Shown here: piece by piece, positions 1,256-15,723 of the stretch
Layout of the letters: every line of letters starts with the position of its first letter
How positions within the stretch are numbered: position 1 is the first letter of the stretch
Assembly (NCBI GenBank): GCA_041574955.1
Contig: JBFGNS010000003.1
Coordinates: forward strand, 2,640 to 66,639
Source of the DNA: Thermoanaerobaculia bacterium
GTDB taxonomy: Bacteria; Acidobacteriota; Thermoanaerobaculia; Multivoradales; JAHEKO01
Length of the DNA stretch: 64,000 nt
Direction: 5' to 3'
Notes under the pieces: generated by a model
Databases searched by the model: none
What the model was told of the DNA's origin: nothing
Seen by the model: only the letters and a program-made list of their open reading frames with translations
Position numbers and translations under genes: made by a program

Positions 1256-1358
1256 GGGACCCGGCTGGGTCGTGGGTCAACTGACCCGCTGCCCCCGGAG
1301 GGCCGGCGTTGCATTCGCGCCGTCTTCGTCGCAGACTCGAACCCCTGAGGAGCACGCC

Positions 1359-2477
1359 TTGGAACCGACAGCGACCCCCGACGACAACTCCGAAGCCAGC
1401 CGGCAGGCGGTCGCGCCGCTGATGGACGCTGCCGGCGCCGAGCTGCAGGCGGCGCTCGGAGACCTGGCGGAGCGGTTCGGCGGCGCCGCCGATCCCGAGC
1501 GCACCGCCGAGGAGCGGCTCGAGCTGTTCGAGGACCTGACCGACTCGGAGGTCGGTGACAACTCGCTCGGCCGCGCCCGCAACCTGGAGCGCGAAAGCGG
1601 CCTCAGGCAGCTGTGGATCCAGTTCGAGGGCGGCAACCCCACCGGCACCCAGAAGGACCGTATCGCCTTCGCCCAGGCGCACGACGCGCTGCGCCGCGGC
1701 TTCGACACGCTGACGGTGGCGAGCTGCGGCAACTACGGCGCCGCGCTGGCGCTGGCCGCCTCGCTCGCCGGCCTGCGCTGCCTGGTCTACATCCCGTCGA
1801 GCTTCCACACCCGCCGGGTGGAGGAGATCGAGCGTCTCGGCGCCGAGGTGGCGCGCTCGCCCGGCGACTACGAGTCGGCGGTGGCGGCGTCGCGCGAGCA
1901 TGCCGAGCGCGACGAGCTGTACGACGCCAACCCGGGCAGCGCCAACACCGCGCTGCAGCTCGCCGCCTACGGTGAGATCGCCAACGAGATCTACGACGAG
2001 CTGCGCGACGCGCCGGCGATCGTGGCTGTGCCGGTGTCGAACGGCACCACCCTGGCGGGCATCTACAAGGGGTTCGTGCGGCTCCACCGGCGCGGCAAGA
2101 CGTCGCGCGTGCCGCGCATGGTGGCCGGCTCGTCGTCGGGCAAGAACCCGATCGTGCGCTCGTTCGCCCGCAAGCTCGAGCACTGCGAGGACCTGGACCC
2201 CGCCAAGGTGCGAGAGACGGCGGTCAACGAGCCGCTGATCAACTGGCATTCGTACGACGGCGAGGCGGCGCTCGACGCCATCCGCGACTCGGGCGGCTGG
2301 GCGGCCGACGCCAGCGACCGCGTGATGCTGCGCCAGGCGCGCAACCTGTCGGCGAAGGAGGGGCTCAACGCGCTGCCGGCCTCGTGCGCCGGGCTCGCGG
2401 TGCTGCTCGCCGGACACGCCGCCGAGCCGCTGCCAGCCGACCGCTATGTCGTTGTTCTGACCGGGAGACGCCGATGA
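1359..2477 (+). CDS. PLP-dependent enzyme, threonine-synthase/PALP fold
   Basis: Has the lysine motif GGNPTGTQKDR (compare NPTGSFKDR of ThrC), plus ASCGNYGAALA and PVSNGTT. The start is uncertain: TTG at 1359 follows a GAGGAG Shine-Dalgarno sequence; alternatives are GTG 1272 and ATG 1422. Confidence 0.8.
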   Translation: MEPTATPDDNSEASRQAVAPLMDAAGAELQAALGDLAERFGGAADPERTAEERLELFEDLTDSEVGDNSLGRARNLERESGLRQLWIQFEGGNPTGTQKDRIAFAQAHDALRRGFDTLTVASCGNYGAALALAASLAGLRCLVYIPSSFHTRRVEEIERLGAEVARSPGDYESAVAASREHAERDELYDANPGSANTALQLAAYGEIANEIYDELRDAPAIVAVPVSNGTTLAGIYKGFVRLHRRGKTSRVPRMVAGSSSGKNPIVRSFARKLEHCEDLDPAKVRETAVNEPLINWHSYDGEAALDAIRDSGGWAADASDRVMLRQARNLSAKEGLNALPASCAGLAVLLAGHAAEPLPADRYVVVLTGRRR

Positions 2478-3574
2478 ACGAGCCGCTCGACGGCACTGCC
2501 GTCGTCTACTGCGAGAGCGCCTTCGGCACCACCAACGGCAAGACCGCCCACGGCCTGGTGCGCCGCACCGCGCGCTACCGGGTGGGCTCGGTGATCGACT
2601 CGCGGCACGCCGGCAAGGACGCCGGCGAGCTGCTCGACGGCCGGCCGAACGGCATCCCGCTGGTCGGCGACCTCGCAGCCGCGCTGTCCGCCGCCGCCGC
2701 CTCGGGTCCGCCGGCGAGCCATTTCGTGGTCGGGCTGGCGCCCGACGGCGGGCGGCTGCCGGCGCCGGCTCGTGCCGCGGTGCGCGCCGCCATCGAGGCC
2801 GGTCTCCATGTCGACAGCGGCCTGCACGACTTCCTGTCCGAGGACCCGGTGCTGGCGCCGCTGGCGGCGGAGAGGGGCGTGCGCATCCGCGACATCCGAA
2901 AGCCGCCGCCGCGCGACGAGCTGCACTTCTTCAGCGGCAAGATCGAGCAGGTCACGAGCTTCAAGGTGGCGGTGCTGGGCACCGACTCGGCGGTCGGCAA
3001 GCGCACCACCGCCTGGCTGCTGGTGGAGGCGCTCGCGGCCGCCGGCACCGGCGCCGAGATGGTCGGCACCGGCCAGACCGCCTGGCTGCAGGGCGCCCGC
3101 TTCGCCACCGTCAGCGACTCGCTGGTGAGCGACTTCGTCTCCGGCGAGATGGAGCACGTCGTCTGGTCGGCTTGGCACGAGCGACGGCCGGAGGTGATCG
3201 TGATCGAGGGCCAGGGCAGCCTGATGAACCCGGCCTACCCCGGCGGCTTCGAGATCCTGGCCGGTGGTCGGCCGGACGCGATCATCGTGCAGCACGCGCC
3301 GGCGCGCAAGGAGTACGACGGCTTCCCGGGCTATCCGCTCCACCCGCTCGATCACCAGATCCGCGCCCTCGAGCTCGTCTCCGGCAAGCCGGTGGTGGCG
3401 GTGACGGTGAACCACGAGAACCTGACGCCCGAGGAGACCGCCGAGGCCTGCCGGACGATCACCGCCGAGACCGGTCTGCCGGCGTTCGACGTGCTGCTCG
3501 AGGGGGCCGCCGGGCTGGCGGAGGTCATCCGCCTGCACGCCGCGGCCGCCGCGACCGAGCGGGGCGATGGCTGA
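2474..3574 (+). CDS. DUF1611 / DgcN-like protein (D-glutamate N-acetyltransferase family)
   Basis: The N-terminus MNEPLDGTAVVYCESAFGTTNGKTAHGL and the P-loop-like segment VAVLGTDSAVGKRTT are typical of DUF1611. The ATG at 2474 overlaps the upstream TGA (ATGA). Confidence 0.75.
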   Translation: MNEPLDGTAVVYCESAFGTTNGKTAHGLVRRTARYRVGSVIDSRHAGKDAGELLDGRPNGIPLVGDLAAALSAAAASGPPASHFVVGLAPDGGRLPAPARAAVRAAIEAGLHVDSGLHDFLSEDPVLAPLAAERGVRIRDIRKPPPRDELHFFSGKIEQVTSFKVAVLGTDSAVGKRTTAWLLVEALAAAGTGAEMVGTGQTAWLQGARFATVSDSLVSDFVSGEMEHVVWSAWHERRPEVIVIEGQGSLMNPAYPGGFEILAGGRPDAIIVQHAPARKEYDGFPGYPLHPLDHQIRALELVSGKPVVAVTVNHENLTPEETAEACRTITAETGLPAFDVLLEGAAGLAEVIRLHAAAAATERGDG

Positions 3575-5906
3575 GGCCGGCGGCGCCGGGGCGCTCGCCC
3601 GGCTGCTGGTCATCGACCGGCTGGAGGTCGGCCCGGTCGAGCTCGAGCCGCGCCGGCTGACCGCCCGTTACCGTGTCGAGCGTGGCGGCGAGAGCGCCGA
3701 GACCGAGCTGGGCTACCGCTTCGAGCAGCACGTCTTCGACCCCGACGATCCGGCGGCGCGCAACCTGGCCGCGGTGGCGGCGTCGCAGGTGGCGCTCAAC
3801 TACGGCCTGTTCTGCCGCCGCATCGTGCTGCGCGGGCCGCTCGATGCGCTCGACCGCCGGTTCCTGGTCGAGATGGCCGCCAACACGGCGCGCGAGATCT
3901 ACGTCAAGAAGCTGCTCGAGCCCAACCCGTTCCTGGTCGGCGACGCCGTCGGGCTGCCGGTGGAGCGGCGCCGCAGCTACCTGCAGGCCGAGATCGAGTT
4001 CCCCGACGCGGTGGCGACGGTGGCGCCCGGCGGCTGGTCCACCGGCTCGACCGTGCCGGCGGTGCTGGCCAGCGGCGGCAAGGACAGCCTGCTGAGCTAC
4101 GGCCTGCTCGACGAGCTGGGCCTGGCGCCGCACTCGGTGTTCGTCAACGAGTCGGGCCGCCACTGGTACACCGCGCGCAACGGCTACCGCCACCTGCGCG
4201 ACAGCGTGCCCGAGCGCACGGCGCGCGTCTGGACCAGCTCGGACCGGGTGTTCAACTGGATGCTGCGGCAGCTGCCGTTCATCCGGCCCGACTTCGCCGA
4301 CGTGCGCGCCGACGAGTACCCGATCCGGCTGTGGACGGTGGCGGTGTTCCTGTTCGGCGCGCTGCCGGTGCTGCGCGCGCGCGGTCTCGGCCGGCTGGTG
4401 ATCGGCGACGAGTTCGACACCAGCGTGCGGCTGCGCCACGAGGGTGTCCCGCACTACGACGGGCTGTTCGATCAGAGCCGCCGGTTCGACGAGCGGCTGA
4501 CCCGCTACTTCGTCGACAAGGGCTGGGGGGTGCGCCAGTTCTCGCTGCTGCGGCCGCTCTCGGAGCTGCTCATCCAGCGGCTGCTGGGCGAGCGCTACCC
4601 CGAGCTCCACCGCCACCAGGTCTCCTGCCACGCGACCCATATCGAGGACGAGCGCACGCGGCCTTGCGGCAGGTGCGAGAAGTGCCGCCGCATCGTCGGC
4701 ATGCACCTGGCGCTGGGTCTCGACGCCACCGCCTGCGGCTACAGCGAGGCCCAGGTCGAGCGCTGCCTGGCCGAGCTGGCGCGTCGCGGCGTCCACCAGG
4801 AGGCCGCCGGCGCCCGCCAGCTGGCCTGGATGCTGCGCGGCCGTGAGCTGCTGCCGCCCGACGCCCCCGGGCTGGCGGCGGCGCGCGAGCACCCCGAGAT
4901 CCTGCGCCTGCGCTTCCACCCCGAGGCGTCGCCGCCGCAGGCCGTACCGTCGGACCTGCGGTCCGGCGTCTGGCGGCTGATGCTCGAGCACGCCGACGGC
5001 GCGGTCGAGCGGCAGGCGCGGCAGTGGGTTCCGTTCGAGCCGCTGGCGCCCGAGGTGCTGGCGCTGCCGTACCCGTTCGAGCCGGCGCCGGCCGAGCGGC
5101 CGCCGCCGCCGCCCAGCGGCGGGCCGTCGGGCTACCTGCTGGGCGAGCTCACCTGGCCGGTCGCCGAGGCGCGGCTGGCCGAGACCGACACCGCGCTGCT
5201 GCCGGTGGGCGCCATCGAGCAGCACGGCCTGCATCTGCCGCTCGACACCGACTCCTGGGACGCCGACCACGTCTGCCGGAGGGTGGCCGAGAACTGCAGC
5301 GATCCCAGGCCGCTGGTGCTGCCGTTGATCCCCTACGGCGTCTCGTACCACCACCTCGACTTCCCGGGCACGCTCTCGGTCAGCCCCGAGACGCTGTCGC
5401 GGCTGGTCTACGAGATCGGGATCAGCGCCGCCCGCCACGGCATCCGCAAGCTGGTGATCGTCAACGGCCACGGCGGCAACGCCCCGACCCTCCAGTTCGC
5501 CGCCCAGATCATCAACCGCGACGCCCACATCTTCACCTGCGTCGACTCGGGCGAGACATCCGACGCCGACATCGAGCGCATCGTGGAGACCGAGGGCGAC
5601 GTGCACGCCGGCGAGATCGAGACCTCGACCGCTCTGGCCAGCCGGCCGGAGCTGGTGGACATGAGCCGCGCGCGGCCCGAGGTGCAGCGGTTCTCGAGCC
5701 AGTACCTCAACTTCGGCTCCAAGCGATCGGTGGAGTGGTACGCGCACACCTCGCGCATCTCCGAGACCGGCGTGATGGGCGATCCCACCAAGGCCAGCCG
5801 CGAAAAGGGCGAGCGGATCTGGCGGGTGATGATCGACCGGCTGACCGAGTTCGTCGAGTCGCTCAAGCGGATGAGCCTCGACGAGATCCACGAGCAGCGG
5901 TTGTGA
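3567..5906 (+). CDS. Fusion protein: unknown N-terminal domain + PP-loop ATP-pyrophosphatase-like domain + creatininase-family amidohydrolase
   Basis: PP-loop motif LASGGKDSLLSYG and cysteine cluster SCH...CGRCEKCRR, then a Pro-rich linker (ERPPPPPSGGPSG). The creatininase-family part shows LLPVGAIEQHGLHLPLDTD, IVNGHGGN and HAGEIETS. Overlaps the upstream gene by 8 nt. Confidence 0.75.
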   Translation: MAEAGGAGALARLLVIDRLEVGPVELEPRRLTARYRVERGGESAETELGYRFEQHVFDPDDPAARNLAAVAASQVALNYGLFCRRIVLRGPLDALDRRFLVEMAANTAREIYVKKLLEPNPFLVGDAVGLPVERRRSYLQAEIEFPDAVATVAPGGWSTGSTVPAVLASGGKDSLLSYGLLDELGLAPHSVFVNESGRHWYTARNGYRHLRDSVPERTARVWTSSDRVFNWMLRQLPFIRPDFADVRADEYPIRLWTVAVFLFGALPVLRARGLGRLVIGDEFDTSVRLRHEGVPHYDGLFDQSRRFDERLTRYFVDKGWGVRQFSLLRPLSELLIQRLLGERYPELHRHQVSCHATHIEDERTRPCGRCEKCRRIVGMHLALGLDATACGYSEAQVERCLAELARRGVHQEAAGARQLAWMLRGRELLPPDAPGLAAAREHPEILRLRFHPEASPPQAVPSDLRSGVWRLMLEHADGAVERQARQWVPFEPLAPEVLALPYPFEPAPAERPPPPPSGGPSGYLLGELTWPVAEARLAETDTALLPVGAIEQHGLHLPLDTDSWDADHVCRRVAENCSDPRPLVLPLIPYGVSYHHLDFPGTLSVSPETLSRLVYEIGISAARHGIRKLVIVNGHGGNAPTLQFAAQIINRDAHIFTCVDSGETSDADIERIVETEGDVHAGEIETSTALASRPELVDMSRARPEVQRFSSQYLNFGSKRSVEWYAHTSRISETGVMGDPTKASREKGERIWRVMIDRLTEFVESLKRMSLDEIHEQRL

Positions 5907-5949: not shown

Positions 5950-7014
5950 ATGAAGATCGTCCGGCTCGAGGCGTGGAGCGTGCGGCTCGGGCTGCGCGAG
6001 CCGTACGCCATCGCCTACGACCGGATCGAGTCGGTGGACAACGTCTTCGTGCGGCTGGTCACCGACAGCGGCCCGCCGGGCTACGGCTGCGCCGCACCCG
6101 ATCCGGCGGTCACCGGAGAGAGCGCGGCGGCGGTGCTGGCGGCAGTCGAGAGCGCCGGCAGCGAGCTGCGCGGCGCCGACCCGCTGCGCCGCATGCGGCT
6201 GCTCGAGCGGCTGCGCGAGCCGCTGGCCGATCGCCCCGGCGCGCTGTCGGCCATCGACATGGCGCTCCACGACCTGCTCGGCAAGGCCAGCGGCCTGCCG
6301 TTGTGGCGGCTGCTGGGCGGCTACCGCGAGTCGATCGCCACCAGCGTCACCATCGGCATCCTGCCGCTCGACGAGACGCTCGAGCGCGCCCGCAGGCATG
6401 TGGGCGAGGGGTTTCGCAGCCTCAAGCTGAAGGGCGGGCTCGACGTCGAGCTGGACGTGGAGCGGGTGCGGCGCACGCGCGAGACGGTGGGCCAGAAGGT
6501 CGAGCTCCGATTCGACGCCAACCAGGGCTACAGCTACGACGACACCATGCGGTTCGTCGAGGGGGTGCGGGAGGCGCGGCTCGAGCTCCTTGAGCAGCCC
6601 ACCGCGGCCGGCGAGGCGGATCTGCTGGGTCGCGTCACCGCCGCCGTCGAGCTGCCGGTGATGGCCGACGAGAGCCTGCTGACCCTGCGCGACGCCTTCC
6701 GGCTGGCGGGCGACGAGCTGGCCGATATGGTCAACGTCAAGCTGGTCAAGGTGGGCGGTCTGGCCGAGGCGCTGCGGATCACCGCGGTGGCGCGCGCGGC
6801 GCGGCTCGAGGTGATGGTCGGCTCGATGGACGAGTCGGCGCTCGGCATCGCCGCCGGCCTCGCCCTCGCGCTGGCCCGACCGGGCGTCGCCTACGCCGAC
6901 CTCGACGGGCACCTGGAGCTCGTCGACGACCCGGCGGCGGGGGCGGTCGTGCTGCGCGGCGGCGAGCTCCATCCCAGCGACGCGCCGGGGCTCGGGGTGG
7001 AGCTGCCGGACTGA
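5950..7014 (+). CDS. Enolase-superfamily dipeptide / N-acyl-amino-acid epimerase (L-Ala-D/L-Glu epimerase / DgcA-like)
   Basis: Shows SLKLKGG, RFDANQGY, LLEQP, VMADES, NVKLVKVGG and MVGSMDES, which match the metal-ligand and catalytic Lys pattern of the MLE subgroup. Confidence 0.85.
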   Translation: MKIVRLEAWSVRLGLREPYAIAYDRIESVDNVFVRLVTDSGPPGYGCAAPDPAVTGESAAAVLAAVESAGSELRGADPLRRMRLLERLREPLADRPGALSAIDMALHDLLGKASGLPLWRLLGGYRESIATSVTIGILPLDETLERARRHVGEGFRSLKLKGGLDVELDVERVRRTRETVGQKVELRFDANQGYSYDDTMRFVEGVREARLELLEQPTAAGEADLLGRVTAAVELPVMADESLLTLRDAFRLAGDELADMVNVKLVKVGGLAEALRITAVARAARLEVMVGSMDESALGIAAGLALALARPGVAYADLDGHLELVDDPAAGAVVLRGGELHPSDAPGLGVELPD

Positions 7015-7152: not shown

Positions 7153-9114
7153 ATGTGCGGACTGGTAGGCATTCTCGGCGGCGGCTCGCCCGCTGAGCGC
7201 CGCGAGCTGGCGGCACGGATGGCCGGCACCCTCGGCCACCGCGGGCCTGACGGCGAGGGCCTGTTCTCCGACGAGGAGTGCGCGCTCGGCTTCCGGCGAC
7301 TGGCGATCGTCGACCTCGACGCCGACTCGCCGCCGTTTCCCAACGAGGACGGCACGGTGTGGAGCCTGGCCAACGCCGAGATCTACAACTCGGCCGAGCT
7401 CGAGGCCGGGCTGGTCGAGCGCGGCCACCGGCTGCGCACCCGGGTCGACACCGAGGTCATCCCGCACCTGTACGAGGAGCGCGGCGCCGATCTGGTCGCC
7501 GAGCTCAACGGCATGTTCGCGCTGGCGGTGTGGGACGCGCCGCGCCGGCGGCTGGTGCTGGCGCGCGACCGGGCGGGCGAGAAGCCGCTCTACTGGTGGC
7601 AGCGCGACGGCGAGCTGGCGTTCGCCTCCGAGCTGAGGGCGCTGGTAGCCCATCCGCGGGTCGGCCGCCAGATCGACCCGGTGGCGCTGTCGCGCTACCT
7701 GCTGCACGACTTCTTCCCGGCGCCCCTGACGCCGTTCGCCGGCGTCCGCAAGCTGCCGGCCGGCCACCTGCTGGTGGCGAGTGGCGGCGAGGTCGTGGTG
7801 CGCCCGTACTGGGACCTGGCCGAGCACTTCGGCGCGCCCGAGCTCGGCCGGCGGCTGCCGGGCCTGGTGGCCGAGGAGCTGGACGAGCGAATCGGCCGGG
7901 CGGTGGAGCGGCGGCGGCGCAGCGACGTGCCGGTGGGGGTGTTCCTGTCGGGCGGCATCGACTCGTCCACCGTGCTGGCCCACATGGCCGAGCAGCAGGG
8001 CCCCGGGGTGCCGGTCTTCTCGCTCGGCCACCGTGACCTCGGCTTCGACGAGTCGCGCTTCGCCCGCGACACGGCGCGCCACTTCGACGCCGACTTCCAC
8101 GAGCTGGTGCTGGACGAGGCCGACCTCGCCGACGGGCTCGACGCCGTCGGCGCCGGCTTCGACGAGCCGCTGGGCGACGCATCGATCATTCCCTCCCACC
8201 TGCTGGCGCGCTTCGCCCGGCAGCGGGTCAAGGTGGTGCTGTCGGGCGAGGGCGCCGACGAGCTGTTCGCCGGCTACCCGACCTACCTCGGCCACCGGCT
8301 GGCCGAGCGCTACCGCCGGCTGCCGCCGGGGCTGCGGCGGTGGCTGGTGCGGGCCGTGGCGCGGCTGATGCCGGTGAGCATGGGCAACGTAGCTGCCGAC
8401 TACCTGCTCAGCCGGTTCGCGGCCGCCGCCGAGCGCGAGCTGGTGGAGCGCCACCACGTCTGGTTCGGCAGCCTGGGACCGGGGCGGCAGGGGGAGGTGC
8501 TGGCGGCGCGGGTGACCGCCCGGCTGGCGGGCGACGATCCGCTGGCCTCGGCGCGGGCGCGGCTCGACGGGCGGCAGCTGCCCGACGACCTGGCGCGGCT
8601 GCTCTACACCGACTTCACGATGTACCTGCAGGACGACCTGCTGACCAAGGTGGACCGCGCCACCATGCTGGCCTCGCTCGAGGCGAGGGCGCCGTTTCTC
8701 GACCACGAGCTGGCCGAGTTCGCCGCTGGCCTGCCGTCGTCGCTCAAGCTGCCGCCGACGCTGGTGCCGACAGGCGCTACCGGCAAGGCGATCCTGCGCC
8801 AGGCCGTGCGTCACCGCCTGCCGCCGGCGGTGCTCGGCCGGCGCAAGCGCGGCTTCAACATCCCGTTCTCGCGCTGGCTGCTCCACGGCCTGGGCGAGCG
8901 GCTGCGCGACCGGTTCAGCCGCGAGCGGGTGGAGGCGCGCGGCCTGCTGTCGCCGGCCGGCGTGGCGCGACTGCTCGACGAGCACCTGTCGCGCGCCGCC
9001 GACCACCGCAAGCCGCTGTTCACGCTGCTGGTTCTCGACCTGTGGTGCGACCGCGAGTTCGGCGAGACGGCGCCGGTACCGCTGGCCGCCGGGTCGGGCG
9101 AGGAGGCGGGGTGA
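7153..9114 (+). CDS. asnB: Asparagine synthase (glutamine-hydrolysing) family amidotransferase
   Basis: Starts MCGLVG (Cys2 nucleophile); also shows RGPDG, FRRLAIVD, and the PP-loop VGVFLSGGIDSS. Confidence 0.9.
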   Translation: MCGLVGILGGGSPAERRELAARMAGTLGHRGPDGEGLFSDEECALGFRRLAIVDLDADSPPFPNEDGTVWSLANAEIYNSAELEAGLVERGHRLRTRVDTEVIPHLYEERGADLVAELNGMFALAVWDAPRRRLVLARDRAGEKPLYWWQRDGELAFASELRALVAHPRVGRQIDPVALSRYLLHDFFPAPLTPFAGVRKLPAGHLLVASGGEVVVRPYWDLAEHFGAPELGRRLPGLVAEELDERIGRAVERRRRSDVPVGVFLSGGIDSSTVLAHMAEQQGPGVPVFSLGHRDLGFDESRFARDTARHFDADFHELVLDEADLADGLDAVGAGFDEPLGDASIIPSHLLARFARQRVKVVLSGEGADELFAGYPTYLGHRLAERYRRLPPGLRRWLVRAVARLMPVSMGNVAADYLLSRFAAAAERELVERHHVWFGSLGPGRQGEVLAARVTARLAGDDPLASARARLDGRQLPDDLARLLYTDFTMYLQDDLLTKVDRATMLASLEARAPFLDHELAEFAAGLPSSLKLPPTLVPTGATGKAILRQAVRHRLPPAVLGRRKRGFNIPFSRWLLHGLGERLRDRFSRERVEARGLLSPAGVARLLDEHLSRAADHRKPLFTLLVLDLWCDREFGETAPVPLAAGSGEEAG

Positions 9115-11525
9115 GCGTACGCCGCCGGCCGGCGGCCGGGTCGTGGCGCGTGCTGGTGGTCGCCGCGGCGCTGGCGGCGGCGCCGGCGGCCGCCGAGCCG
9201 GCGGCGGTGCGCATCGGGGTGGTGGTGGACGGTCCCTGGGAGGGCAACCAGGCAGTCCTGGACCTGACGGTGGCGGAGGTGACGGCGCTCACCGCCGGCG
9301 AGTTCGAGGTCGGCTTCCCGGCCGCCGCCCACCTCATCGGCGACTGGACCTTCGACACGGCGCGCGCCAACCTGGAGCGGCTGCTGGCCGACCCCGGCGT
9401 CGACCTGGTGATCACCTGGGGGCTGCTGGCGTCGCACGCGGTGTGCTGCGTGGGCGAGCTGGACAAGCCGGTGGTGGCGCCGGTGGTGGCCGATCCGTTC
9501 TTGCAGGGGCTGCCGCTCGCCGGCGGTGCCAGCGGCGTGCCCAACCTGAGCTACGTCGCGCTCGAGAACGCCACCGCCCGCGAGCTGGCGCTGTTCCAGC
9601 GCATCGTGCCGTTCTCCAAGATCACCTTCCTGAGCACCCGTGAGTTCCTGGAGGCGGTGCCCGACGTGCCGCTGCGCAGCCTCGAGCTGGCGGCGCGCGC
9701 CGGTCTCGAGGCCGATTTCGTCGGCCTCGGCAGCGACCCCGAGGAGGCGCTGGCCGCCATCCCGGGCTCGACCGAGGCGGTCTACGTCTGGCCGCAGTTC
9801 CAGATGGGGGAGGAGGGCTTCCGGCGGCTGGTTGACGGACTCAACGCCCGCAAGCTGCCGAGCTTCTCGGCGCTCGGCGGCCGCTACGTCGAGGCCGGCA
9901 TGCTGGCCACCGCCCAGTCCGACGACTTCTTCCAGCGGCTCAGCCGGCGGGTCGCACTCAACGTGCAGCGCATCCTGCTGGGCGAGCCGCCGGCGTCCAT
10001 ACCGGTCGACTTCCGCTACCGCGAGCGGCTGGCGATCAACATGGCAACCGCCCGCGCCATCGGCGTCTCGCCGGGCTGGGACGTGCTGGTCGAGGCGCGG
10101 CTGCTGCACGCCGAGGAGTCGGGTCTGCCGGCGCTGACGCTCGAGCGCGCCGTCGAGCAGGCGCTGGCCGACAACCCCGAGCTGGCCGCGGCGCGACGTG
10201 AGCTGGCCGCCGGAGAGCAGCAGGTGGCGGCGGCCCGCGCCGCCTTGCGGCCGCGGCTCGAGCTGTCGGGCTCGGCGCTGGCGATCGACGACGACCGCGC
10301 CGCCGCCAGCTTCGGCTCGCAGCCCGAGCGCACCACGCTGGGGTCGCTGGCCCTCGGCCAGCTGGTGTTCTCGGAGCCGGCGCGGGCCAACCTGGAGATC
10401 GAGCGCCGGCTGCAGGCCGGCCGCGAGGCCGACTTCGAGAGCCGCCGGCTGGACCTGGTACGGGAGACGGCGGTGGTCTACCTCAACCTGCTGCGCGCCA
10501 AGACCCTGGTCGAGGTGCAACGCAACAACCTCGAGCTGACGCGCTCCAACCTGGAGCTGGCCGAGCTGCGGCGGGCGATCGGCGCCGCCAACCCGGCCGA
10601 GGTCTACCGCTGGCAGAGCCGCATCGCCACCGATCGTAAGGCGCTGATCGAGGCTCAGGCCAGCCGCCGCATAGCCGAGATCGCGCTCAACCGCCTGCTC
10701 GGCCGGGATCTGGAGGAGCAGTTCCTGACCGAGGAGGTGGACCTCGAGGATCCCGACCTGATCACGGGCCAGGAGCGGTTCCGCGGCTACACCACCACGC
10801 CGCGTCGCTTCCGCCTGCTGCGCGACTTCATGGTCGAGGAAGGGCTGACCGCGGCGCCCGAGCTGCGCCGGCTGGACCGCGCCATCGCCGCCCAGGAACG
10901 CGCGCGGGCCGCCGCGCGGCGCGCCTTCTGGCTGCCGGCGATCGGTCTGCGTGCCGGGGTCGACCAGCGGCTCAGCGCGGCCGGCGCCGGCAGCGCCGGT
11001 GGCCCTGTGCTGCCGGGCCTGGCGTTGCCGCGGGCCGACGACACCAGCTGGAGCCTGGGTCTGTCCGCTTCGCTGCCGCTGTTCGCCGGCGGCGAGCGGC
11101 GGGCCGAGGTCGAGCGCGCCGAGGCCGAGCTCGACCGGCTGGGTCTGGCGTTCGACGCCACCGCCGACCGCATCGAGCAGCGCATCCGCTCCGGCATCGA
11201 GGTGGCGCGCGCCTCGTTCGCCGGCATCGAGCTGTCGCGTGAGGCCTCGGCGGCGGCCCGCAGCAGCCTCGAGCTGGTGGCCGACGCCTACGCCCGCGGA
11301 GCGGTGTCGATCCTCGACCTGCTCGACGTGCAGAACGCGGCGCTCAACGCCGAGCTGCTGGCGGCCAACGCGGTCTACGACTTCTTCGTCGATCTGATGG
11401 AGGTGCAGCGCGCCGCCAGCCGCTTCGACTTCTTCCTCGACATCGGGGCGCGCGACCTGTGGTACCAGCGCCTCGAGCTGTACTTCGATCGGGCCGGCCA
11501 CAGCCCGGGGGAGTCCACCAGATGA
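9111..11525 (+). CDS. Outer-membrane efflux protein (TolC family) with N-terminal ABC_sub_bind-like periplasmic-binding domain
   Basis: GTG at 9111 follows AGGAGG (9101-9106) and overlaps the asnB TGA. Signal peptide RVLVVAAALAAAPAAA. The N-terminal domain of about 320 aa ends in RLAINMATARAIGVSPGWDVLVEA. The C-terminal half has two OEP repeats (LTLERAVEQALADNPEL..., SILDLLDVQNAL...). Confidence 0.8.
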   Translation: MSVRRRPAAGSWRVLVVAAALAAAPAAAEPAAVRIGVVVDGPWEGNQAVLDLTVAEVTALTAGEFEVGFPAAAHLIGDWTFDTARANLERLLADPGVDLVITWGLLASHAVCCVGELDKPVVAPVVADPFLQGLPLAGGASGVPNLSYVALENATARELALFQRIVPFSKITFLSTREFLEAVPDVPLRSLELAARAGLEADFVGLGSDPEEALAAIPGSTEAVYVWPQFQMGEEGFRRLVDGLNARKLPSFSALGGRYVEAGMLATAQSDDFFQRLSRRVALNVQRILLGEPPASIPVDFRYRERLAINMATARAIGVSPGWDVLVEARLLHAEESGLPALTLERAVEQALADNPELAAARRELAAGEQQVAAARAALRPRLELSGSALAIDDDRAAASFGSQPERTTLGSLALGQLVFSEPARANLEIERRLQAGREADFESRRLDLVRETAVVYLNLLRAKTLVEVQRNNLELTRSNLELAELRRAIGAANPAEVYRWQSRIATDRKALIEAQASRRIAEIALNRLLGRDLEEQFLTEEVDLEDPDLITGQERFRGYTTTPRRFRLLRDFMVEEGLTAAPELRRLDRAIAAQERARAAARRAFWLPAIGLRAGVDQRLSAAGAGSAGGPVLPGLALPRADDTSWSLGLSASLPLFAGGERRAEVERAEAELDRLGLAFDATADRIEQRIRSGIEVARASFAGIELSREASAAARSSLELVADAYARGAVSILDLLDVQNAALNAELLAANAVYDFFVDLMEVQRAASRFDFFLDIGARDLWYQRLELYFDRAGHSPGESTR

Positions 11526-12625
11526 GAGCTACCGCCGCCACCGCCGTCCTGCCGTTCGTCTGGCTGCTCGCCGGCTGTGCCGGCGAGCCGGAGCCGCCGG
11601 CGCCCGAGATCCGGCCGGTGCGCACGCACCGCGTCGCGCCGAGCGAGGGCGCCGAGCTGCGCACCCTGGCCGGCGTCGCCCGCGCCGGCGTCGAGTCGCG
11701 TCTGAGCTTCCGCGTCGGCGGCACCGTGCAGCAGCTGCGGGCGGCGCTCGGCGACCGTGTGCGCGCCGGTCACGTGCTGGCGGTGCTCGATCCGGCCGAC
11801 TACGAGCTGCAGGTCGAGGAGGCCGAAGCGGCGCTGGCGCAGAGCCAGGCCGGCCTGCGGCGTGCCGAGGCCGACTACGACCGTGTGCGCGCGCTGTACG
11901 AGAACAACAACGCCTCGAAGAGCGAGCTGGACGCCGCCCGCGCCGCGGCCGAGTCGGCCGAGGCGGTGGTGGAGAGCGGCGCCAAGCGGCTCGAGCTGGC
12001 CCGCCGTCAGGTCGACTACACGGTGCTCAGGGCGCCCAGCGACGGGGCGATCGCGATGGTCACCGTCGAGGTCAACGAGAACGTGCGCAGCGGCCAGGAG
12101 GTGGTGCTGCTGGTCATCGGCAGCCACCCCGAGGTGCAGGTGGCGGTGCCCGAGGTGCTGATTCCGCGGGTCTACGCCGGCCAGCCGGTGACGGTCGAGC
12201 TGGCCGCGCTTGGTGGCCGCCGCCTCGACGGCGTGGTGAGCGAGGTGGGGGTCGCGATGACCGGCACCGCGAGCACCTTCACCGTTACCGTGCGGCTGGT
12301 GGACGCCCACCCTGCGATCCGCTCCGGCATGGCGGCCGACGTCACCTTCCGGCTGGTCGACGAGAACGCCAGCGAGCGGCTGTTGGTGCCGCCGGTGGCG
12401 GTGGGCGAGGACCGTCATGGGCGGTACGTGTTCGTGGTGCGCCAGCTCGACGACGGCACCGCGCGCGTCGAGCGCCGCGGCGTCACCGTCGCCGCCAGCG
12501 GCGGCGTCGGCGGCATCGAGATCGTCGACGGCCTGGAAGCCGGCGAGCTGATCGTCACCGCCGGCCTGCGCCGCATGTCCGAGGGGATGCGGGTGCGGCC
12601 GGTCGATGCCGGAGAGCCGATGTGA
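11522..12625 (+). CDS. RND efflux periplasmic adaptor (MFP/HlyD family) lipoprotein
   Basis: Lipobox LLAGC; coiled-coil hairpin region (ELQVEEAEAALAQSQAGLRRAEADYDR); beta-barrel region. ATGA overlap with the upstream gene. Confidence 0.9.
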   Translation: MRATAATAVLPFVWLLAGCAGEPEPPAPEIRPVRTHRVAPSEGAELRTLAGVARAGVESRLSFRVGGTVQQLRAALGDRVRAGHVLAVLDPADYELQVEEAEAALAQSQAGLRRAEADYDRVRALYENNNASKSELDAARAAAESAEAVVESGAKRLELARRQVDYTVLRAPSDGAIAMVTVEVNENVRSGQEVVLLVIGSHPEVQVAVPEVLIPRVYAGQPVTVELAALGGRRLDGVVSEVGVAMTGTASTFTVTVRLVDAHPAIRSGMAADVTFRLVDENASERLLVPPVAVGEDRHGRYVFVVRQLDDGTARVERRGVTVAASGGVGGIEIVDGLEAGELIVTAGLRRMSEGMRVRPVDAGEPM

Positions 12626-15600
12626 GCCTGACGCGCTCGGCCATCGACAACGACCGGGTCACCCTGGTGCTGCTGGCAGTGCTGCTGGTGGCCGGCATCC
12701 AGGCCTACCTGGGCATGCCGCAGGCCGAGGATCCGGGTTTCACCATCCGCACCGCGATGGTGCTGACCTACTTTCCCGGCGCCAGCCCGCAGCGCGTCGA
12801 ACAGCTGGTCACCGACAAGCTGGAGAAGGCGATCCAGGAGCTGCCGCAGCTCGAGTCGGTGGTCAGTCAGTCGAAGACCGGCGTGTCGATCGTGCTGGTC
12901 AACATCCTGGAGAGCTACCGCGAGATGCGGCCGATCTGGGACGATCTGCGCCGCAAGGTCGACCGCGCGGCCGGCGAGCTGCCCGACGGCGTCATCGGGC
13001 CGACGGTCAACGACGAGTTCGGCGACGTCTTCGGCACGGTGGTCACCGTCGCCGGCGACGGCTACTCCTACGCCGACCTCAAGCGCATCGCCGACGAGGT
13101 GCGCGACGAGCTGCTGCTGATCGGGGAGGTGGCCAAGGTCGACATCTTCGGCGCCCAGCAGGAACGGGTGTTCGTCGAGTACTCGAACGCCCGGCTGGCG
13201 GAGCTCGGCCTGGCGCCGCTGCAGCTGCGCAACATCCTGGAGAGCCGCAACATCATCAACCCCGGCGGCGATATCCGCACCGACGAGGAGGTGATCGTCT
13301 TCGAGCCCACCGGCAGCTTCGAGTCGGTGGAGGACCTCAAGCGCACGGTCATCACCCTGCCGGGGCGCAGCGAGCTGCTCTACCTGCAGGACGTGGCGAC
13401 GATCTACCGCGGCTACGTCGACCCGCCGACCACCCGCATGCGCGCCAGCGGCGAGCCGGCGCTGGCGCTGGCGGTGTCGCTCAGGGAGGGCGGCAACATC
13501 CTCGACCTCGGCTCGGCGGTCGCGAGCACGGTCGAGCAGCTCCGCACCATCTACCCGGTGGGAGTCGACTTCGACTTCGTGGCGTTCCAGGCGCAGGCGG
13601 TCGACCGCAAGGTGTCCGACTTCCTCGGCAATCTGGTGCAGGCGGTGGCCATCGTGCTGGCGGTGATGCTGCTGAGCCTCGGCCCGCGCACCGGGCTGGT
13701 GGTGGCCAGCCTGATCCCGATGGCGATGGTCGCCAGCTTCATCTTCATGGCGCTGTTCGACGTCGGCATCAACCAGATGTCGCTGGCGGCGCTGATCATC
13801 GCGCTCGGCTTGCTGGTGGACAACGCCATCGTGATGTCGGAGTCGATCCTGGTCCAGATGGGGGAGGGCAGGCCGGCGGTCGAGGCGGCGGTGGATTCGG
13901 CCGCCGAGCTGCGCATGCCGCTGCTGACCTCGTCGCTGACCACCGCCGCCGCCTTCCTGCCGATCGCCCTGGCGCGCTCGACCACCGGCGAGTACACCCA
14001 GACGCTTTTCCAGGTGGTGACCATCACCCTGCTGTGCTCGTGGGTGCTGTCGCTGACCATGGTTCCGCTGCTGTGCGTGCTGTTTCTCAGACCGCGCCGG
14101 CGGGCGCCGGCGGCCGCCTTCGACACGCCGTTCTACCAGCGCTACCGCCGGCTCCTGGTGGCCGTGCTGCGCCGTCCGTGGCTCAGCCTGGCGCTGGTGG
14201 CGCTGGTGTTCTTCGGCGCCCTGCAGCTGATGCGGCTGGTGCCCAAGATCTTCTTCCCGCCCAACGACCGGCCGACGCTGCTGGCCGAGCTGCGGCTGCC
14301 GACCGGCTCGCCGCTGTCGGCGACCGAGGCGCTGGTGGTGGAGGTGGAGGGTTTCCTGCGCGAGGAGCTGCTGCTGGCGCCGGCCGACCTGGCGGCCGGT
14401 GACGAGGGCGTCGTCAACTGGGCCAGCTTCATCGGCGAGGGCGCGCCGCGCTTCTTTCTCTCGTACACGCCGGAGCCGGCGAGCCCGGAGTTCGCCGTGC
14501 TGGTGATCAACGCCACGTCGCGCGAGTTCGTCGACGTCGCGGTCGGCCGGCTGCGGGAGTTCTGCCGCCGCTTCCCCGGCCTCAAGGCGCAGATCGACCC
14601 GCTGCCGCTGGGGCCGCCGGCGGCCAACCCGGTGGAGGTGCGCATCTCGGGCCGCGACTCCGAGGAGCTGTTCGGGCTGGTGGCGGTGGTGCAGGAGCGG
14701 CTGCGCGCCATCCCGGGCACGCGCTCGATCGACGACGACTGGGGGGCGCGGTCGAAGAAGGTGGTGGTGCGCATCGACGAGGCGCGCGCCCGCCGCGCCG
14801 GGGTCAGCAACCAGGATGTGGCGCTGTCGCTGCAGACGGTGTTCTCGGGCTTCAACACCACCGAGTACCGCGAGGACGACAAGGTCATCCCGGTGGTGCT
14901 GCGCTCCGAGCAGGCGGGCGCGATCGACCCGGCGTCGTTCGCCAGCGTCAACGTCTTCTCGCAGGCCACCGGCCGGTCGGTGCCGCTGGCCCAGGTGGCG
15001 GAGATCGAGCTCGCCTGGCAGCCCGCCAACATTCGGCGGCGCAACCGGCTGCGCACGGTGACCGTGACCTCGGACGTGGAGCCCGGCTACACCGCCAACG
15101 AGGTGATCCAGCAGCTCGAGCCCTGGTTGGCCGAGTCGAGCCAGGGTTGGCCGCGCGGCACAGGCTGGGAGATCGGCGGCGAGCAGGAGGCTTCGAACAA
15201 GGCCAACCGCTCGATCGTGGCGCAGCTGCCGGTCGCCGGGCTGATCATCGTGCTGCTGCTGGTAGCGCAGTTCAACTCCATCCGCCGGCCGCTGATCATC
15301 CTGATCGCCATCCCGCTGGGGATCATCGGCGTGTCCGTCGGGCTGGTGGTGATGCGCTCCTACATCGGCTTCATGACCCTGCTTGGCATCATCTCGCTGT
15401 CGGGAATCGTCATCAACAACGCCATCGTGCTGCTCGACCGCATCCGGCTGCAGGAGCAGGTGCACGGCTCGAGCCCGCAGCAGGCGGTGATCGAGGCGGC
15501 GCAGCGCCGGCTGCGGCCGATCCTGCTCACCACCTTCACCACCCTCGGAGGGCTGATACCGCTCTATATCGGTGGCGGACCGATGTACCAGCCGATGGCA

Positions 15601-15723
15601 GTGGCGATCATGTTCGGGCTGCTGTTCGGCACCACCCTGACGCTCGGCATCGTGCCGGTGCTGTACGCGGTGATGTTCCGGGTGAGCTTCCGCGACTTCG
15701 CCCCCGGCGGGGCGGCGAGCTGA
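12622..15723 (+). CDS. RND efflux permease (AcrB/HAE family)
   Basis: 1033 aa with typical AcrB-family N-terminus and transmembrane repeats (LAALIIALGLLVDNAIVMSE; GIISLSGIVINNAIVLLD). GTGA overlap with the adaptor gene. Confidence 0.95.
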   Translation: MSLTRSAIDNDRVTLVLLAVLLVAGIQAYLGMPQAEDPGFTIRTAMVLTYFPGASPQRVEQLVTDKLEKAIQELPQLESVVSQSKTGVSIVLVNILESYREMRPIWDDLRRKVDRAAGELPDGVIGPTVNDEFGDVFGTVVTVAGDGYSYADLKRIADEVRDELLLIGEVAKVDIFGAQQERVFVEYSNARLAELGLAPLQLRNILESRNIINPGGDIRTDEEVIVFEPTGSFESVEDLKRTVITLPGRSELLYLQDVATIYRGYVDPPTTRMRASGEPALALAVSLREGGNILDLGSAVASTVEQLRTIYPVGVDFDFVAFQAQAVDRKVSDFLGNLVQAVAIVLAVMLLSLGPRTGLVVASLIPMAMVASFIFMALFDVGINQMSLAALIIALGLLVDNAIVMSESILVQMGEGRPAVEAAVDSAAELRMPLLTSSLTTAAAFLPIALARSTTGEYTQTLFQVVTITLLCSWVLSLTMVPLLCVLFLRPRRRAPAAAFDTPFYQRYRRLLVAVLRRPWLSLALVALVFFGALQLMRLVPKIFFPPNDRPTLLAELRLPTGSPLSATEALVVEVEGFLREELLLAPADLAAGDEGVVNWASFIGEGAPRFFLSYTPEPASPEFAVLVINATSREFVDVAVGRLREFCRRFPGLKAQIDPLPLGPPAANPVEVRISGRDSEELFGLVAVVQERLRAIPGTRSIDDDWGARSKKVVVRIDEARARRAGVSNQDVALSLQTVFSGFNTTEYREDDKVIPVVLRSEQAGAIDPASFASVNVFSQATGRSVPLAQVAEIELAWQPANIRRRNRLRTVTVTSDVEPGYTANEVIQQLEPWLAESSQGWPRGTGWEIGGEQEASNKANRSIVAQLPVAGLIIVLLLVAQFNSIRRPLIILIAIPLGIIGVSVGLVVMRSYIGFMTLLGIISLSGIVINNAIVLLDRIRLQEQVHGSSPQQAVIEAAQRRLRPILLTTFTTLGGLIPLYIGGGPMYQPMAVAIMFGLLFGTTLTLGIVPVLYAVMFRVSFRDFAPGGAAS

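Follow-up and report, generated by a model that had tools for sequence, protein, structure and literature searches.

Enzymes of the creatininase family act on cyclic amides, and we know of no other member of this family that is fused to a PP-loop ATPase. Here we describe such a fusion, encoded by one gene in a stretch of 64,000 nucleotides (nt) from a Thermoanaerobaculia bacterium of the phylum Acidobacteriota (GenBank assembly GCA_041574955.1, contig JBFGNS010000003.1, positions 2,640 to 66,639 of the forward strand). This whole stretch is referred to below as the window, and coordinates given without a locus name are positions within it. The described systems that come closest to the ATPase half of the protein are MurL and the QueC family. 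MurL epimerises the C-terminal L-Glu of a peptide while turning ATP over to AMP; the reaction depends on ATP and Mg, yields AMP and runs only one way, and reviews of 2018 and 2021 presented MurL as a protein that "lacks known conserved domains" (PMC5808125; PMC8788868). QueC-family enzymes form amides from adenylated carboxylates, including at protein N-termini (PMC13279940; PMC13329287). QatC consists of an N-terminal extension, a QueC core (residues 145-377) with a four-cysteine (Cys4) zinc site and a C-terminal extension (PMC13279940).

We demonstrate that the gene of the window encodes a protein in which an ATP pyrophosphatase unit of about 500 amino acids (aa), homologous to MurL, is tethered to a creatininase-family hydrolase; that this fusion is genuine and found in many phyla; and that it sits in a cassette with a ThrC-like pyridoxal-phosphate (PLP) enzyme, a DUF1611 protein and a dipeptide epimerase. 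Both halves come from known superfamilies; the fusion and the cassette are without a described function. We propose, with moderate confidence, that this four-gene cassette acts on an amino acid or a dipeptide, and that the fusion protein would adenylate a carboxylate and hydrolyse an amide.

Architecture of the fusion protein

The open reading frame (ORF) extends over 3567..5906 (+), from an ATG start to a TGA stop, with zero internal stops. An initial annotation of this DNA had described a single 779-aa ORF without internal stop, placed between a DgcN-like gene (2474-3574) and an epimerase gene (5950-7014), and had quoted a series of motifs; our reading agrees on the frame and on its position, and all of the motifs were located in the protein. 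SGGKDS stands at aa 169-174 (nt 4071-4088) and CH-x12-CGRCEKC at aa 354-373, with the Cys4 set (C354, C367, C370, C373) at nt 4626-4685. The Pro-rich linker ERPPPPPSGGPSG lies at aa 510-522, and the hydrolase domain carries EQHGLHLPLDTD (aa 551-562, nt 5217-5252), NGHGGN (aa 633-638, nt 5463-5480) and HAGEIETS (aa 680-687, nt 5604-5627). The gene and its parts are the following, with the predicted local distance difference test (pLDDT) of the AlphaFold2 model where it bears on them:

3567..5906, forward strand: predicted bifunctional fusion gene, 779 aa
3567..4046 (aa 1-160), forward strand: N-terminal extension, beta-beta-beta-alpha-beta-alpha, pLDDT 89
4047..4721 (aa 161-385), forward strand: QueC/MurL-type PP-loop ATP pyrophosphatase core, from Foldseek, hhalign and invariant motifs
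4722..5066 (aa 386-500), forward strand: helical/beta C-terminal extension of the ATPase unit, hhalign alignment up to aa 491, pLDDT >90
5067..5138 (aa 501-524), forward strand: disordered Pro/Gly-rich tether, pLDDT <50 at aa 509-519
5139..5903 (aa 525-779), forward strand: creatininase-family (PF02633) metallo-amidohydrolase domain, Pfam E 4e-73

The initial annotation had counted three parts, with an unknown N-domain as a separate partner, and on this point we come to another view. In the AlphaFold2 model, built with an alignment of 38 sequences, pLDDT is above 90 over aa 10-500 and below 50 at aa 509-519. The tethers of the homologues are 18-60 aa long and have zero invariant columns; the highest densities of invariant columns in the protein are those of the PP-loop core (63/225) and of the hydrolase domain (74/255). 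When aa 1-400 served as the query, more than 1,200 proteins of ~440-600 aa were found, which cover the whole N-terminal part of the fusion (the N-part) with 59-69% identity and show no Pfam domain, and distant relatives of 460-512 aa, 24-40% identical, cover aa ~10-490. The N-extension is also present in stand-alone and archaeal homologues (one relative lies in an archaeal contig). Since stand-alone proteins of ~500 aa span the whole N-part, residues 1-500, i.e., the N-extension, the PP-loop core with its putative Zn-Cys4 site and the C-extension, are one ancestral unit. Hence, the protein is a two-part fusion, and the supposed separate N-domain belongs to this ~500-aa unit, which also occurs as a gene of its own. 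The ATPase family, for which Pfam has no model, comprises only 443 clusters when 1.84 billion proteins are clustered at 50% identity. When the N-extension alone was compared with the PDB by Foldseek, it returned only an RNase-H-like topology at a template-modelling (TM) score of ~0.3, which was taken as no match.

A genuine and widespread fusion

A search for full-length homologues among 5.8 billion proteins gave more than 2,800 matches to the fusion protein. The best 120 of them are 755-823 aa long and 59-72% identical over 97-100% of the length, and they are annotated at most as "creatininase family protein". In a species-level scan, with one genome per species, at least 593 matching stretches were found, in Gemmatimonadota, Acidobacteriota, Desulfobacterota, Planctomycetota, Bacteroidota, Aminicenantes, Zixibacteria, Krumholzibacteria, Calditrichota, KSB1 and others; the carriers number in the hundreds and are mostly uncultured, with Desulfosarcina variabilis, D. 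widdelii and strain NaphS2 among the cultured ones. Both halves are in one stop-free frame at 67 of the 77 loci that hold them both. About 10 of these 77 are split or frameshifted, and the split operons break at the tether (in a clean case, a gene of 517 aa and a creatininase gene of 282 aa share 4 nt).

The split forms of some genomes, together with the draft state of the window's source genome (290 contigs), are what speaks for an assembly or frameshift artefact that joined two separate genes. Against such an artefact, the same in-frame fusion recurs at 67 of 77 independent loci, some of them on complete chromosomes or in cultured Desulfosarcina strains, and more than 100 full-length homologues stand among the matches listed. 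Given these in-frame loci and the more than 2,800 homologue matches, the fusion is therefore genuine and not a frameshift artefact, whose probability is negligible. The initial annotation had itself considered that a missed stop or a frameshift might split the gene, which is contradicted by these loci, and that the architecture might be a common, annotated family of known function; the architecture is indeed common, but it has no known function.

In its own phylum, the gene was found in only 14 of 301 genomes. The copy from the same family is 53% identical to that of the window, and copies in other phyla are more similar to it. This patchy presence, together with the closer copies elsewhere, suggests an accessory module disseminated by horizontal transfer.

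The ATPase half and its link to MurL

At the level of the sequence, the N-part is nearly mute: aa 1-520 have no Pfam match at E <= 0.1, the QueC family model PF06508 finds nothing in the N-part, and a sequence search for solved relatives returned none. Its model is more telling. With Foldseek, the best match is QatC (9y01_B, E 2e-5 over 398 columns), accompanied by QueC (2pg3, E 4e-4, TMt 0.67; 3bl5, TMt 0.72) and Cap9, and weaker matches are MnmA, TtuA and YcfA. The PP-loop that characterises QueC (SGGxDS) is present as SGGKDS, with S169, G170, G171, K172 and S174 invariant in the 38 sequences. The cysteines are equally invariant in these sequences; they follow the pattern C354-x12-C367-xx-C370-xx-C373, where the zinc motif of QueC is C(x)8CxxCxxC. 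The first Cys4 spacer of QatC is likewise longer than that of QueC (PMC13279940). The initial annotation had read the middle part as a PP-loop/Cys-cluster domain, and these matches and invariant residues uphold a PP-loop ATP pyrophosphatase with a Cys4 cluster. On the other hand, the motifs by which QueC holds its substrate (YxQxHxxE, VPxRN and YPDC) are absent, the corresponding stretches reading NESGRHW, YPIRLW and GDEFDT; 7-carboxy-7-deazaguanine is thereby ruled out as the substrate.

The NCBIfam model of MurL (NF041275) gives only 24.6 bits, for a cut-off of 700, and over aa 322-376 only. MurL-like genes were fetched from a sample of 401 genomes. Two of them reach 299 bits to the MurL model over nearly the whole length and adjoin a MurD-family ligase, in agreement with the published MurD2/MurL arrangement, and four paralogues reach 104-124 bits. 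When the N-part was aligned by hhalign with these six MurL-like proteins, the match had 98.4% probability and E 1e-14 over 299 columns (aa 163-491), at an identity of ~20%. Both groups share G170, G171 and S174 of the PP-loop, K172 being nearly invariant (GGGKDS in the MurL-like proteins), and also E282, G293, S326, P330, S353-C354, C367, C370, K372 and C373. Among characterised proteins, MurL is thus the nearest relative of the N-part. The PP-loop and Cys4 signature of MurL fits an AMP-forming chemistry, and the assignment of MurL to the QueC fold would explain why it turns ATP into AMP.

The MurL-like genes next to MurD-family ligases, at L088:1381-2724 (+) and L089:1480-2904 (-), encode GGGKDS and the Cys4 set SC...CxxCxKC, and their products align to QueC-fold proteins.

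The analogy with the MurD2/MurL pair raises the question of a supply of D-glutamate that would replace MurI. MurI was searched for in five complete genomes that carry the cassette. All five match the glutamate-racemase model (TIGR00067), four of them above its cut-off, which makes this role unlikely; in the window's own genome, a draft that is 89% complete, this model has no match.

The hydrolase half

The C-terminal domain is matched by Pfam Creatininase (PF02633) with 246.2 bits for a gathering threshold of 31.3 (E 4e-73), aa 527-763 corresponding to positions 2-238 of the 238 of the profile. Creatininases of the PDB match it by sequence (E 1e-24) and by Foldseek (E 5e-10). Of the creatininase active site, the ligands E34, H36, D45 and H120 together with the catalytic H178 correspond to E551, H553, D562, H635 and H680, and these metal motifs are invariant in the 38 sequences. 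Creatininase E122 is replaced by Gly637 of NGHGGN, a residue that the generic GHGGN motif of the family also has there. Among the NCBIfam models, MftE (TIGR03964) scores best, with 155.4 bits for a cut-off of 172, and creatininase itself (TIGR04448) gives 106.3 bits for 235; the domain stays below every NCBIfam equivalog cut-off, including those of IolN and ArfB. No mycofactocin genes were found among the neighbours (PALP, DUF1611, MR_MLE). The initial annotation had spoken of a complete creatininase-type core, which stands as far as the family and the metal motifs are concerned and not as far as creatinine is. Since the metal ligands are aligned and invariant while the scores are below the cut-offs, the domain is probably an active, generic hydrolase of the family, closest to MftE and not a creatininase proper.

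The cassette and its partner enzymes

Three partner genes lie on the same strand as the fusion gene:

1272..2477, forward strand: ThrC-like PLP enzyme of the PALP fold type II (Pfam PALP, E 5e-53; NCBIfam NF004996)
2474..3574, forward strand: DUF1611 (DgcN-like) protein with a Rossmann-like N-domain and a P-loop C-domain (Pfam DUF1611_N, DUF1611)
5950..7014, forward strand: enolase-superfamily dipeptide epimerase (MR_MLE_N/C; PDB 3rit, 254 bits)

The genes are tightly packed. The PLP-enzyme and DUF1611 genes share an ATGA stop/start overlap at 2474-2477, the start of the fusion gene overlaps the stop of the DUF1611 gene by 8 nt (3567-3574), and 43 nt separate the fusion gene from the start of the epimerase gene at 5950. 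We surveyed 85 loci that hold the N-part. The order PLP enzyme, DUF1611, fusion, epimerase recurs across them and is kept in most of 80 species loci from many phyla, and each of the cassette genes is ~55-70% identical to its copy in the window. The N-part was found at all 85 loci, the creatininase at 79, DUF1611 at 77, the PLP enzyme at 73 and the epimerase at 72. The fusion gene is the most constant member, DUF1611 and the epimerase being sometimes missing.

The PLP enzyme scores 409 bits against the NCBIfam "threonine synthase" model NF004996 (cut-off 266); as the Pfam domain sets in only at aa 94, the gene may start further downstream than 1272. All five genomes tested here (the window's genome and four complete cassette genomes) have a better ThrC match at another place, so that the enzyme is an extra paralogue, and we rejected it as the housekeeping threonine synthase. 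The DUF1611 protein has the P-loop GTDSAVGKRT, invariant in 70 of 70 orthologues, and reaches 148 bits for a cut-off of 480 with the DgcN equivalog. This P-loop resembles that of BioD, which would hint at ATP-dependent amide formation, and the named relative DgcN is annotated as an N-acetyltransferase. ATP-dependent amide formation and N-acetyl transfer are both possible for DUF1611.

The closest solved structures to the epimerase are 3rit (254 bits), 3jva and the L-Ala-D/L-Glu epimerase (AEE) of B. subtilis (1jpm/1tkk); the DgcA equivalog gives 157 bits for a cut-off of 400. The catalytic set (the KxK pair, the three metal ligands D189, E215 and D240, and the second catalytic Lys, K264) and the DxD motif D317-x-D319 are invariant in 64 of 64 cassette orthologues. 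Work on 1TKK reportedly shows that the DxD of AEE holds the free alpha-ammonium group of the dipeptide. Arg24 of AEE is the partner of the Glu side chain; at its position, in an ungapped alignment with 1jpm, the copy of the window has Asp and 58 of the 64 orthologues have Glu. From the invariant DxD and this acidic residue we infer that the substrate would be a dipeptide with a free N-terminus and a C-terminal side chain that is not anionic and possibly cationic.

Variants and surroundings of the cassette

Several loci depart from the standard fusion. At L005:2116-4203 (P0146), the N-part is fused to a RidA/L-PSP domain in place of the creatininase, and in P0243 DUF1611 and the N-part form one protein, the creatininase being encoded separately in an otherwise standard cassette. 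These alternative fusions place DUF1611, the ATPase unit and the hydrolase in a common process. An archaeal locus has the DUF1611 and N-part pair only. A variant operon without a creatininase gene (L087:3679-8524) has a histone-deacetylase (HDAC)-type amidohydrolase, a 452-aa gene and a GNAT gene, and at L075 a class-V aminotransferase, of the cysteine-desulfurase fold, takes the place of the epimerase.

The operon at L087 adjoins an M15 peptidase/beta-lactamase fusion. A distant fused relative of 781 aa, with an N-part 32% identical, is found at L095:417-5373 (P0273), where the upstream side is cut by the contig end and the neighbours are a 421-aa gene and a CofD-family gene. At L094 (G537:C25:1-7000), a stop-free frame of 1145 aa covers the fusion gene and reaches into the sequence upstream of it. 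A triple fusion was considered here; the frame is probably a high-GC open frame, and the triple fusion is not substantiated.

Beyond the cassette, no consistent partner was found: 118 flanking ORFs fall into 127 Pfam families, the commonest being the sigma-54 activators (7 of the 118), which homology clustering of all flanking ORFs placed at 12 loci. Ion and amino-acid transporters recur beside the loci inconsistently, and an osmolyte role was not pressed for this reason. No riboswitch was found upstream in the window or in 10 loci. The AsnB-like gene that lies downstream in the window is not kept with the cassette (0 of 85 loci). This gene, an asparagine-synthase-like amidotransferase (488 bits to the XrtA/PEP-CTERM amidotransferase model, below the cut-off), lies in the region 7153-15723 and precedes a long outer-membrane-factor ORF, a resistance-nodulation-division (RND) adaptor and an RND pump, none of them conserved with the cassette. 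On the other side, positions 1-1255 hold a nucleotidyltransferase-type gene cut at its 5' end, with 62% G+C against ~73-75% in the adjoining cassette.

Proposed function and alternatives

Within the reading that we favour, we infer that the ATPase half would adenylate a carboxylate, likeliest the C-terminal alpha-carboxylate of a dipeptide or an N-acyl amino acid, and that the hydrolase half would cleave an amide bond (of a peptide or a lactam), either in what the first half produces or in the adjacent intermediate. By analogy, MurL points to the adenylation of a peptide's C-terminal carboxylate. Both active sites are strongly constrained, and they are tethered or encoded in adjacent genes, which fits consecutive steps. 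What the data show directly are the folds, the homologies, the conserved motifs, the fused and split variants and the conserved cassette; the substrate, the order of the steps and the overall direction are proposals. One may tentatively draw a specific scheme of four steps. DUF1611 would make an acyl- or aminoacyl-amino acid, possibly from the product of the PLP enzyme; the ATPase unit would activate its C-terminal carboxylate for a one-way inversion or transfer, as MurL does; the enolase-type epimerase would equilibrate the dipeptide; and the hydrolase half would set the product free. Equally tentative is an undescribed route, driven by ATP, in which a dipeptide or acyl-amino acid would be assembled, its C-terminal and possibly cationic residue irreversibly inverted or cyclised via a MurL-type adenylate, and the result then hydrolysed.

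If true, this would give bacteria, and some archaea, a new means of making or salvaging a D- or unusual amino acid, and it would provide a function for the large orphan DUF1611 family and for the MurL superfamily outside peptidoglycan synthesis. Finding the substrate would moreover give a function to the MurL-like ATPase, the creatininase subgroup, the cassette-type DUF1611 and the ThrC paralogue, and would reveal a MurL-type ATP-dependent chemistry beyond cell-wall synthesis. Direct testing is feasible in the cultured Desulfosarcina that carry the cassette.

Several points weigh against this proposal. The PFECxG that is invariant in the MurL clade aligns to VHQE in the fusion family. With this replacement and an identity to MurL of only ~20%, epimerase chemistry need not have persisted, and what follows the adenylation may differ. 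The operon has a second, cofactor-free epimerase, beside which an ATP-driven one seems superfluous. Amide and ureido oxygens are further targets of adenylation by PP-loop enzymes (the second step of QueC, GMP synthase), so that the activated group could be a carbonyl and not a carboxylate. The scheme leaves the role of the PLP enzyme unexplained. Moreover, four loci (L079, L081, L082 and L085) have the PLP enzyme, DUF1611 and the N-part without hydrolase or epimerase, and three others (L016, L033 and L075) have the PLP enzyme, the N-part and the creatininase without DUF1611 or epimerase; these variants do not fit one simple linear scheme.

The PP-loop/creatininase combination has no characterised member in the libraries or the literature searched, where nothing was found on DUF1611 plus creatininase or on the fusion architecture. 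The initial annotation had not recognised this combination of domains either, rightly as it turns out.

Other chemistries can be imagined for the same two halves. In a ring chemistry, the PP-loop half would adenylate a carboxylate or an amide oxygen, an internal amine would then close a lactam, cyclic amidine or guanidine, and the creatininase half would open or close a ring; the outcome would be a cyclic amino acid, for instance a solute like ectoine, or the opening of a lactam with the help of ATP, as by 5-oxoprolinase. It comes close to the idea of the initial annotation that an adenylation/ring-opening or amidine-forming sequence may be channelled on one polypeptide, where MurL points instead to the carboxylate at the C-terminus of a peptide. 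The ring chemistry agrees with a creatininase family that acts on cyclic amides and a QueC family that activates amide oxygens, with the acidic residue at the AEE Arg24 position, which suits a cationic side chain able to lactamise (lysine, ornithine, diaminobutyrate (Dab) or diaminopropionate (Dap)), and with the ion or amino-acid transporters that adjoin some loci. We consider it unlikely, however: the C-domain is closest to the peptidase-type MftE and is without the Glu122 of creatininase, the census of neighbours gives no consistent osmotic or transport partner, and the hydrolase of one creatininase-less variant operon is an HDAC-type deacylase and not a ring hydrolase. The PP-loop half could also be an amide ligase, coupling the adenylated carboxylate of an amino acid to ammonia or to the amine of another amino acid, as in the first step of QueC or in Cap9; a dipeptide or a C-terminal amide would be made, the epimerase would invert it and the hydrolase would trim or proofread. 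The amide-forming activity of the QueC family (PMC13279940; PMC13329287) and a downstream epimerase that would need a dipeptide with a free N-terminus are in keeping with this. Its fusion to a hydrolase of the same bond type would nevertheless be futile, the DUF1611 P-loop protein is already a candidate ligase or acyltransferase, and the canonical YxQxHxxE and YPDC of QueC are absent, which leaves a ligase quite improbable.

Sulfur insertion, which would give a thio-derivative from an adenylated carboxylate or carbonyl in the manner of TtuA, MnmA or LarE, has in its favour the presence of MnmA, TtuA and YcfA among the weaker Foldseek matches and the class-V aminotransferase that replaces the epimerase at one variant locus. 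The four-cysteine set C-x12-CxxCxxC resembles, however, the zinc site of QueC/QatC and not a three-cysteine [4Fe-4S] signature, and the cassette has neither a conserved sulfur carrier nor a conserved desulfurase; this chemistry is very improbable. The same QatC match, the best structural one for the N-part and with the same layout of N-extension, QueC core and C-extension, could suggest a component of anti-phage defence that would act on protein termini and modify them, as QatC and Cap9 do. Yet the resemblance to QatC is limited (TM-score 0.42, 12-13% identity), neither the fusion protein nor its neighbours are matched by a PADLOC model, QatA, QatB, QatD and CD-NTase genes are absent at the locus, and the conserved partners are small-molecule enzymes. 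With such metabolic neighbours, a defence system is close to refuted.

Comparison with known systems

Compared with creatininase, MftE, ArfB and IolN, the C-domain has a full-length match, the same fold and the motifs EQHG.H...D, GHGGN and HAGE.ETS; unlike them, it stays below the cut-offs, has Gly at the E122 position and has no mycofactocin genes beside it. The D-glutamate catabolic pathway of DgcN-DgcA, or that of N-succinylamino acid racemase, resembles the cassette in that DUF1611 and an enolase-superfamily racemase or epimerase share one operon, with an amidohydrolase available to complete an acylate-invert-deacylate route. The pair of the cassette is nonetheless far below the DgcN and DgcA cut-offs, and its epimerase, which keeps the DxD, is nearer to the dipeptide epimerases, from whose Glu-specific AEE it differs by Glu/Asp in place of Arg24. 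We considered and rejected a DgcN-DgcA pair split by an insertion, the fusion gene being the most constant member of the cassette.

The ATPase half shares with QueC, QatC and Cap9 the fold, the SGGxDS loop and a Cys4 zinc-type site equally distant from the PP-loop, and with QatC the succession of N-extension, core and C-extension. It differs from QueC in having no PF06508 match, no YxQxHxxE or YPDC, and C-x12-C where QueC has C-x8-C, and from all three in that neither 7-deazaguanine genes, nor defence genes, nor a PADLOC match are found near the fusion. From MurL it differs in several respects. The cassette has no Mur ligase neighbour, VHQE replaces PFECxG, the N-part carries a hydrolase domain and shares its operon with a second epimerase, and the fusion is not tied to D-Glu supply, four of the five complete cassette genomes having a canonical MurI match above the cut-off of the model. 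Both nevertheless have the (S/G)GGKDS PP-loop, the SC...CxxCxKC Cys4 set, an N-extension of ~135-160 aa and a C-terminal extension, and both adjoin a gene that may make their amide substrate, i.e., MurD2 for MurL and, putatively, DUF1611 for the fusion.

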